Origin: a virus
Lineage: Duplodnaviria; Heunggongvirae; Uroviricota; Caudoviricetes
DNA: 33,255 nucleotides
Direction: 5' to 3' (one strand)
IMG/VR virus record: IMGVR_UViG_2667527666_000008
Of the stretch, positions 26,792 to 27,081 are shown in pieces. Numbering within the stretch: position 1 is the first letter of the stretch; each line of letters opens with the position of its first letter. Both the position numbers and the translations under genes were made by a program. Under the pieces are notes generated by a model, which saw only the letters and a program-made list of their open reading frames with translations, had not been told where the DNA came from and did not search any database.

Positions 26792-26881
26792 CCCAACCCG
26801 GGGGGGGTATCATCCGGCGTAAAAAACGATCGCTTTGGACACCGCGCCCCCTCTCACGCAGAGAAAAAATTCCCGTTTCAG

Positions 26882-27009
26882 GCCAGTTAACATGTTAACT
26901 GGCTGCCCGGGCATTTTTGCGGTTTTTATCTTTATTATTCAGTTTGTTGTGCGAAAAAAATGTTAACTGGCTTTTTCAGAAAATGTTAACCAGGCAGCAG
27001 TTAACATTT
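26882..27009. promoter_or_regulatory. Candidate packaging-recognition repeats (cos-region-like)
   Basis: Perfect 22-bp palindrome GCCAGTTAACATGTTAACTGGC (26882..26903), then AAAAATGTTAACTGGC (26956..26972) and inverted repeat AAATGTTAAC-caggcagca-GTTAACATTT (26981..27009); a G8 run at ~26803..26810. Confidence 0.45.
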
Positions 27010-27081
27010 GCGGCATGAGACGCCGGGAAAAATGGGCTGAACCATACCCGGCTGAGTGCGTTCTGGACCCGGGAGGAGGCT

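Follow-up and report, generated by a model that had tools for sequence, protein, structure and literature searches.

The small terminases (G1P) of the SPP1 and SF6 phages recognise several short repeated boxes in pacL and pacR, around intrinsically bent DNA, and these phages package their DNA by the headful (pac) route. In lambda, repeated elements bound by the small terminase gpNu1 lie in both orientations within cosB (R3-I1-R2-R1), between the nicking site and the small-terminase gene at the first-packaged end; cosB also has an IHF site, a bendable segment parts its proximal from its distal sites, and the lambda overhang is a 5' end of 12 nt. HK97, for which the cos site and the HNH protein gp74 were treated by Kala et al. 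(2014), as cited in PMC11331095, has its HNH gene just 5' of cos and a 10-nt 3' overhang; its small terminase, gp1, reads a single 15-bp site at +15 to +29, over an A-tract, with the DNA threaded through the protein ring (PMC11331095). In the E. coli PICI EcCICFT073, a satellite without TerS that parasitises lambda-type cos phages, cosN is common with the helper phage and cosB is different (PMC6092414).

The window, by which we mean the whole stretch of 33,255 nucleotides that was analysed (IMG/VR record IMGVR_UViG_2667527666_000008), is a lambdoid prophage from E. coli with a head of the Stx1a/Stx2c-phage type and may be defective; its features are collected in Table 1. The packaging module of this prophage recurs, at 93-99% identity, in 94 phage records. 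Most of these are phages that convert for Stx1a, Stx2c or Stx2a, with BP-4795, 2851, 1717 and YYZ-2008 as examples. In the RefSeq annotation of a 96.6%-identical prophage the interval between the HNH endonuclease gene and the small-terminase gene (terS) is empty. The HNH ORF matches Pfam HNH PF01844 (E 2.7e-7) and PHROG 589 HNH endonuclease (E 1.8e-44) and directly precedes the terminase genes in the order HNH, terS, terL, as in HK97-style modules. Pfam matches also identified TerL_ATPase and TerL_nuclease domains, an HK97-fold capsid and an S78 prohead protease downstream, and the GTG start of terS is preceded by GGGAGGAGG at 27071-27079.

Table 1. Features of the window and of its packaging interval; signed positions are counted from the predicted cut, with +1 at 26853.
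Feature	Position	Strand	Basis or remarks
Window gene content: replication genes, Q, lysis genes, HNH, terS, terL, protease-capsid, portal			
HNH endonuclease gene, 121 aa	26426-26791	+	ORF; packaging-associated HNH, 5' of cos
G8 run	26800-26807	+	Conserved; ends at -46 from the cut, on the last-packaged side
cos cleavage core, GGACACC + CGCGCCCCCT	26837-26852	+	By homology to the mapped ends of Lys8385Vzw and fEg-Aba01
Packaged left-end start, CTCACGCAGAGAAAAAATTCCC	26853-26874	+	+1 to +22; A-tract at 26864-26869
Proximal site P1, 22-bp palindrome GCCAGTTAACATGTTAACTGGC	26882-26903	.	GTTAAC hexamers start at +34 and +42
AT-rich spacer	26904-26956	.	T-tracts at 26914, 26923, 26931 and 26943, about 9-12 nt apart; A7 run
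Distal half-site, AAAATGTTAACTGGC	26957-26971	+	+105 to +119; 15/16 copy of the P1 right arm
Distal inverted pair, AAAATGTTAAC-N9-GTTAACATTT	26980-27009	.	+128 to +157
terS, 187 aa	27082-27645	+	Pfam Terminase_2; GTG start
terL, 553 aa, ATPase and nuclease domains	27642-29303	+	Pfam TerL_ATPase, TerL_nuclease
Fused S78 protease/HK97-fold capsid gene, single 645-aa ORF	29367-31304		Pfam matches

In its general plan, the interval between HNH and terS resembles lambda cosB: repeated candidate small-terminase elements stand in both orientations on the first-packaged side, between the predicted cut and terS, and a possibly bendable segment parts the proximal from the distal sites. It differs from lambda in its predicted 10-nt 3' overhang with an HNH helper, in a small terminase (TerS) of the Terminase_2/SF6 type with a helix-turn-helix in place of gpNu1, in the motif GTTAAC, and in the presence of phased T-tracts at the position of the lambda IHF site; the IHF consensus WATCAANNNNTTR was not found, at up to one mismatch, in 26780-27100. 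With HK97, the locus shares the HNH gene just 5' of cos, by homology the 10-nt 3' overhang, a G-run about 43-46 nt before the cut, an A/T-tract soon after it, the TerL domain types, the HK97-fold capsid and the S78 protease. Unlike in HK97, protease and capsid are fused, the small terminase is unrelated to gp1, and the candidate elements are repeated hexamers from +34 instead of a single 15-bp site. The likeness to G1P of SPP1 and SF6 lies in the fold of the N-terminal helix-turn-helix DNA-binding domain (structures 2cmp, 3zqq and 4zc3); the C-terminal oligomerisation part has no detectable similarity, and the pac mode of those phages contrasts with the defined cohesive ends predicted here.

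The cut itself can be placed from two relatives with mapped ends. Virion DNA of Lys8385Vzw (MT225100), analysed with PhageTerm, indicated cos packaging; the cohesive ends are of the 3' type, and the sequence that closes the genome is CGCCCCCCCT (PMC7946995). The TerS of this phage is 94% identical to the window TerS and starts at base 230 of the record, which ends in ...GGACACCGCCCCCCCT and starts with CTCACGCAGAGAAAAAATTCCCG (in a longer read, CTCACGCAGAGAAAAAATTCCCGTTTCAGGGCAGTTAACATGTTAACTGGC). When joined, these ends match window 26837-26875 base for base, and the phage is colinear with the window over 26837-26903 save two substitutions. For an independent relative, the Acinetobacter phage fEg-Aba01, PhageTerm together with a heat/cool restriction gel established a 10-nt 3' end, CGCCCCCCAT (PMC7354433). 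The TerL of fEg-Aba01 is 52% identical to the window TerL, and its record ends in GGACACCGCCCCCCAT and starts with CGCACGCACAAAAAAAATTCCC, which is the same core in the homologous place. Because the ends of Lys8385Vzw align base for base, the 10-nt 3' cohesive end of the window would by homology be CGCGCCCCCT at 26843-26852, between HNH and terS, and the left end would begin at 26853. The first-pass annotation had proposed cos cleavage within this interval, by analogy with HK97-like phages; homology to the two mapped relatives bears this out and refines it, as the predicted cut lies between the G8 run and the repeats and in neither of them, 36 nt 3' of the former and 30 nt 5' of the palindrome. 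The G8 run was itself considered as the cut site and rejected, the mapped ends being 36-45 nt 3' of it. The record ends of the Burkholderia phage vB_CB2a were considered as a third anchor and set aside, as this record was opened arbitrarily inside the A-tract. Among the close phage records, end information comes from Lys8385Vzw alone, the remaining ones being prophage extractions.

For comparison across lineages, prophages and phages that code for a TerS homologue (28-82% identity; designated below by L numbers) were aligned on the cut core, which is kept across Enterobacterales prophages and satellites. The G-run varies in length, from G6 to G9 across lineages and from G6 to G10 among close relatives, and in 29 of 34 lineages its 3' end stands at -46, while the next 29 nt vary; in the right end of HK97 (L260), by our own count on the printed sequence, a G9 run ends at about -43. 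In the anchored alignment, the packaged left end begins with the consensus CTCAC..CAGAAAAAATTCCC (+1 to +22) in all lineages, whatever their TerS class, and this block is kept also in satellites with a different repeat motif. Since the A-tract block (+1 to +22) and the G-run are common to phages and satellites of any TerS, and the G-run also to HK97, we speculate that they are more likely to be read by TerL, HNH or the termination machinery; our guess is that the G-run is a cosQ-like termination element. In the O157 'PPompW' prophages (L261, LC567822.1, 746-2204), ISEc20, of the IS110 family, terminates within the G-run, the junction reading ...aataaagtaac followed by GGGGGATCATCC. The usual upstream lysis genes and the HNH gene are absent from these prophages, in which the order is Q, tRNAs, IS, cos, terS, and a prophage of this type retains the cut core, the repeats and terS without HNH.

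The first-pass annotation had also reported a perfect 22-bp palindrome, two further GTTAAC elements of which one is an inverted repeat, their placement between HNH and terS, and a G8 run nearby, and direct reading confirms each of these (Table 1). In addition to the two half-sites of the palindrome, three ATGTTAAC half-sites start at 26960, 26984 and, on the minus strand, 27000, so that five are present in total, three on the plus and two on the minus strand; at least three copies in both orientations are thus available, as in a cosB. The single distal element contains ATGTTAACTGGC at 26960-26971, and the inverted repeat is made up of the arms AAATGTTAAC (26981-26990) and GTTAACATTT (27000-27009), 9 nt apart. 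The hexamers of the distal cluster fall at +110, +133 and +148; the whole array spans +30 to +157, and terS starts at +230. The AT-rich spacer between the proximal and the distal sites is a candidate for an intrinsic bend, and homologous T-rich spacers are present in L164 and L170.

Of the eight TGTTAAC matches in the 33-kb window, five lie within the 121 bp of 26886-27006; the number expected for the whole window, on both strands, is 3.24. When the 229 bp from the cut to terS (26853-27081) were shuffled 5000 times with dinucleotides preserved, no shuffle contained five copies of one 8-mer family (the maximum was 4, in 2 shuffles) and none contained a perfect 22-bp palindrome (the maximum was 20, in 1 shuffle). 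Because the shuffles match neither the copy number nor the palindrome length, the repeats are real and not due to chance. The 22-bp form is a minority allele: 29 of 51 distinct alleles (the window and 50 relatives) have G at 26883, and the usual perfect palindrome is therefore 18 bp long, CAGTTAACATGTTAACTG. Among 79 IMG/VR relatives compared, the five 8-bp cores had no variable position, with only about 13 variable columns across the whole 229 bp; as the stretch from cos to terS is near-invariant throughout, these close relatives are too alike to demonstrate selective conservation.

The more distant lineages reveal a fixed register between the motif and the cut. Wherever a compared lineage bears a motif, the motif's first hexamer begins at +33 to +35, or at +41/+42 if the left half-site is degenerate; among these lineages are Enterobacterales prophages, E. 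coli satellites, Salmonella phage SP-016 and phages of Hafnia and Acinetobacter. The start of terS, by comparison, is variable across lineages, from +39 to +241. Most Enterobacterales relatives and Salmonella phage FSL SP-016 have it at +39/+40, others have it at +62 to +76, and four lineages, namely the window (+230), L164, L170 and L204, have it at +181 to +241. In the +40 group, terS starts at the central ATG of GTWAAC-ATG-TTAAC, with GGAGGG just before it; codons 2-3 (TTA ACA) differ in one sequence only (L102), and synonymous changes are seen at most of codons 4 to 12. In the window lineage, terS begins 190 nt further 3' as GTGCTGACA and the motif is gone from the gene start, while at +40 the motif remains, as a better palindrome. 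The motif was thus retained at +40 when the gene start moved, and it therefore follows the cut site and not the gene start. This behaviour points to a role of the motif at the DNA level within cos. In most relatives (L084-L103 and L001; +39 to +47), ATG TTA ACA lies inside the candidate TerS site with a Shine-Dalgarno sequence just 5', so that the same bases would be used for packaging and for the start of translation.

Arrays of the same layout, with a site, a T-rich spacer and more sites, occur independently with other motifs in L170 (7 copies) and L204 (4 copies). Long spacers with 4-7 copies and short ones with 1-2 copies are found within one TerS class, as in L204 compared with L195 and L222, and in L170 compared with L165 and L172. 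Since long and short arrays coexist within single TerS classes, array expansion has been repeated and independent.

The small terminase of the window may be able to read such sites. Its sole Pfam match is Terminase_2 (PF03592), over residues 2-57, and the family profile matches PDB entries 4zc3, 2cmp and 3zqp, which are the DNA-binding domains of SF6 and SPP1-like small terminases. In the AlphaFold model, residues 1-50 form four helices with pLDDT above 90, and the best Foldseek match is the DNA-binding domain of SF6 TerS, 4zc3 (target TM-score 0.84, rmsd 1.6 A, 30% identity). The N-terminal 56 residues are a helix-turn-helix DNA-binding domain of the SF6/SPP1 type, and Pfam, the PDB profile matches and the Foldseek comparison all identify the N-terminal fold of SF6 G1P. 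Headful (pac) packaging does not fit the module, as relatives with the same TerS have defined 3' cohesive ends. Membership in the gpNu1 family is not indicated, the Pfam matches of the window TerS being Terminase_2 only; homology to HK97 gp1 is likewise not indicated, as BLASTP of the window TerS against gp1 gave E 0.96 and gp1 is without a Pfam match.

Across lineages, the cut core is constant while the motif changes with the N-terminal helix-turn-helix domain of TerS. GTTAAC is the partner of TerS proteins with ...ARxKGSQL/GSRLAKDPEV.AFI (the window, L164, SP-016, L084-L103 and L213), and AAAAGTTACAC (GTTACAC) is the partner of those with ...ARVKGWQL/GCQL...V(K/R)(K/R)YL (L165/L169, L170 and L172). 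The latter motif is present as two direct copies in L165/L169, as seven copies in both orientations in L170 and as one copy in L172, a Hafnia phage. L204 and fEg-Aba01, with TerS of other classes, have other motifs: AAAAGTTAACTTTT is found in L204 and also in L195 and L222, and three direct AAGTTAAA repeats at +34, +47 and +58 in fEg-Aba01. L217 and L234 have TTTAAC/GTTAAA. The Hafnia phage is 64% identical to the window in HNH, 64% in TerL and 43% in TerS, and it combines a class-B TerS N-terminal domain with the GTTACAC motif. In the window, TerS is a mosaic, the first 55 residues being like the GTTAAC (SP-016/majority) class and the C-terminal half like the GTTACAC class, which implies domain shuffling between TerS lineages; as this mosaic has a GTTAAC-class N-terminus, the motif tracks the N-terminal domain specifically. 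The likeness to the satellite/Hafnia class extends from about residue 107 to residue 187 (GLPDPVKAMGQIL...DPKLALDAAWRLAQFTHHKKG). Within the GTTAAC class, L164, with a TerS 64% identical to that of the window, has the palindrome GGTGGTTAACATGTTAACCACC, which is still a perfect 22-mer with both flanks changed; its third copy, AAAATGTTAACCACC, has TGGC replaced by CACC, as have both arms of the palindrome. In L168, the core of the distal inverted pair is altered symmetrically, AATGTTTAC...GTAAACATT.

From comparison of these sequences, we think it likely that the GTTAAC repeats form an array of small-terminase binding sites, parted by the T-tract spacer, just inside the left end of the packaged DNA. 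Terminase recognition in this interval had been suggested by the first-pass annotation and is supported by repeats that lie on the terS side of the cut, at a constant distance from it, and co-vary with the DNA-binding domain of TerS, from which we infer binding by TerS. The interval would then serve for cos packaging in a lambdoid prophage of the HK97 style, assisted by HNH and with 3' cohesive ends. TerL with its HNH helper would cut at 26843-26852 and leave the 10-nt 3' cohesive end seen in the two mapped relatives, and the repeats, at +30 to +157 on the first-packaged side, would act as a cosB-like array. The peripheral helix-turn-helix domains of a TerS oligomer may bind the proximal palindrome (+34 and +42) and also the distal cluster (+110, +133 and +148), with the phased T-tract spacer allowing the DNA to bend or wrap. 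TerS binding would set TerL and HNH on the cut site and keep the terminase on the left end for docking to the portal, after which packaging would proceed rightwards via terS, terL and the head genes. Lambda cosB works in this manner, and the scheme also fits the action of SPP1/SF6-type TerS at pac. Our proposals on binding, bending and use of the distal sites are based on position, repetition and co-variation. The primary TerS binding site is a role for which P1 is the candidate. The distal copies are absent in most relatives, where the proximal site is alone, and they may be dispensable. By analogy with the mapped HK97 TerS site over its A-tract, the conserved A-tract of the window at +12 to +17 could be the true recognition element or an extra one.

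Only the proximal palindrome (+34/+42) might work, and the distal stretch of about 190 bp might be a lineage-specific insertion or a duplication of an old terS 5' end with no role in packaging; most relatives have the proximal pair only, with terS from +40, the pseudo-starts MLTG..., MLTGFF... and MLTRQQLTFAA recall the MLTTQKRKFALA of terS, and the close relatives yield no statistical proof of constraint. Neutral relics would be expected to decay, whereas the distal copies agree with the proximal arm over 12-15 nt and in L164 have changed together with it, the distal inverted pair is still symmetric after the core change in L168, and the independent lineages L170 and L204 have the same layout of site, spacer and sites with other motifs. 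We regard this explanation as unlikely.

Far less probable, in our opinion, is an action at the level of RNA, in which the palindromes would form hairpins of the late transcript and work as a terminator, as an attenuator or in the control of terS translation. Every plus copy is able to pair with every minus copy, and the flank changes in L164 and L168 preserve the complementarity of the arms, but the unpaired third copy in L164 changed its flank as well, and the satellites and fEg-Aba01 have direct repeats, which cannot form hairpins, at the same register. A stable hairpin would, moreover, block translation in most relatives, where the motif overlaps the terS start codon; a terminator scan of 26792-27081 found nothing, the RNA fold had a z-score of -1.36 with 19 of 200 shuffles folding as well, and Rfam gave no match at E up to 1. 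As GTTAAC is palindromic, it would suit any dimeric binder, and a protein other than TerS, such as HNH, TerL, a host nucleoid protein or a phage regulator, might be the one that binds. We give this very little credence: satellites without HNH or terL still have a motif array matching their own TerS, the Hafnia phage has a different TerS N-terminal domain and GTTACAC despite the better conservation of its HNH and TerL than of its TerS, and no IHF consensus was found at up to one mismatch. A coding explanation, in which the stretch from 26892 (the ATG of the palindrome) to 26966 (the TAA in the next repeat) encodes the 24-aa hydrophobic peptide MLTGCPGIFAVFIFIIQFVVRKKC, is scarcely credible. An ORF of identical length is present in L164, but the ATG at 26892 has no Shine-Dalgarno sequence 5' of it, the window and L164 differ in an 11/6/7 pattern over codon positions 1/2/3, with no enrichment at third positions, L170 lacks the ORF despite its identical layout, and a T-rich strand yields hydrophobic codons in any frame.

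L169 (E. coli GCA_012987925.1, AATOBA010000003.1 55090-75578) contains, at about 3446-11944, a PICI-like satellite, as do L165-L167 and L174-L176. The satellite contains small ORFs and genes for an integrase, a primase/helicase (AAA_25) and a TerS homologue, with no terL and no HNH; the TerS homologue (P0064) is 46% identical to the window TerS and belongs to a cluster of 243 member sequences. For a 307-aa protein of this satellite, the match to fused protease-capsid proteins (PHROG 617/10) is confined to their capsid part. The DNA 5' of its terS holds a G-run of the window family and the cut core GGACACCGCCCCCCGTCTCA, with two direct AAAAGTTACAC repeats instead of GTTAAC. A second TerS-carrying element lies at 784-2491 of L170/L171 (E. 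coli GCA_034197145.1); it encodes the TerS P0055 and is accompanied by an AlpA-family regulator, a Y1 transposase and a group II intron maturase fragment, with an AIDA-type autotransporter gene 3'. This element resembles a satellite that has decayed but still has a 7-copy GTTACA array.

The satellites described here are like EcCICFT073 in that they keep the cut core, with GTTACAC repeats replacing GTTAAC; they differ from it in having their own TerS homologue and an HK97-style cos core. We tentatively entertain the idea, which we consider possible and rather doubtful, that the array and the TerS N-terminal domain together are an exchangeable specificity cassette beside a universal cut core (G-run, GGACACC, C-rich decamer and A-tract), that the TerS-encoding E. 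coli satellites hijack HK97-style cos phages by a swap of TerS, and that the expanded arrays of 5-7 sites, present in some of the phage lineages, are a possible response to competition for TerL.

The array is most probably an ordinary cos packaging signal that was previously unannotated, with a cut already mapped in one relative, and it leaves the general understanding of packaging unchanged. Our literature search found no description of the repeat array or of its co-variation with TerS, which does not in itself prove that none exists. The module is common in Stx1a, Stx2c and Stx2a prophages of pathogenic E. coli and is medically relevant. The cut position and the likely TerS motif allow virion ends to be predicted, help to judge which prophages remain packageable, and enable the design of cos plasmids and transduction assays for this module. 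In addition, the array offers a concrete and testable target on DNA for a TerS of the SF6 type within a cos system, and it points to satellites that apparently share the cut site with these phages but not the recognition array.
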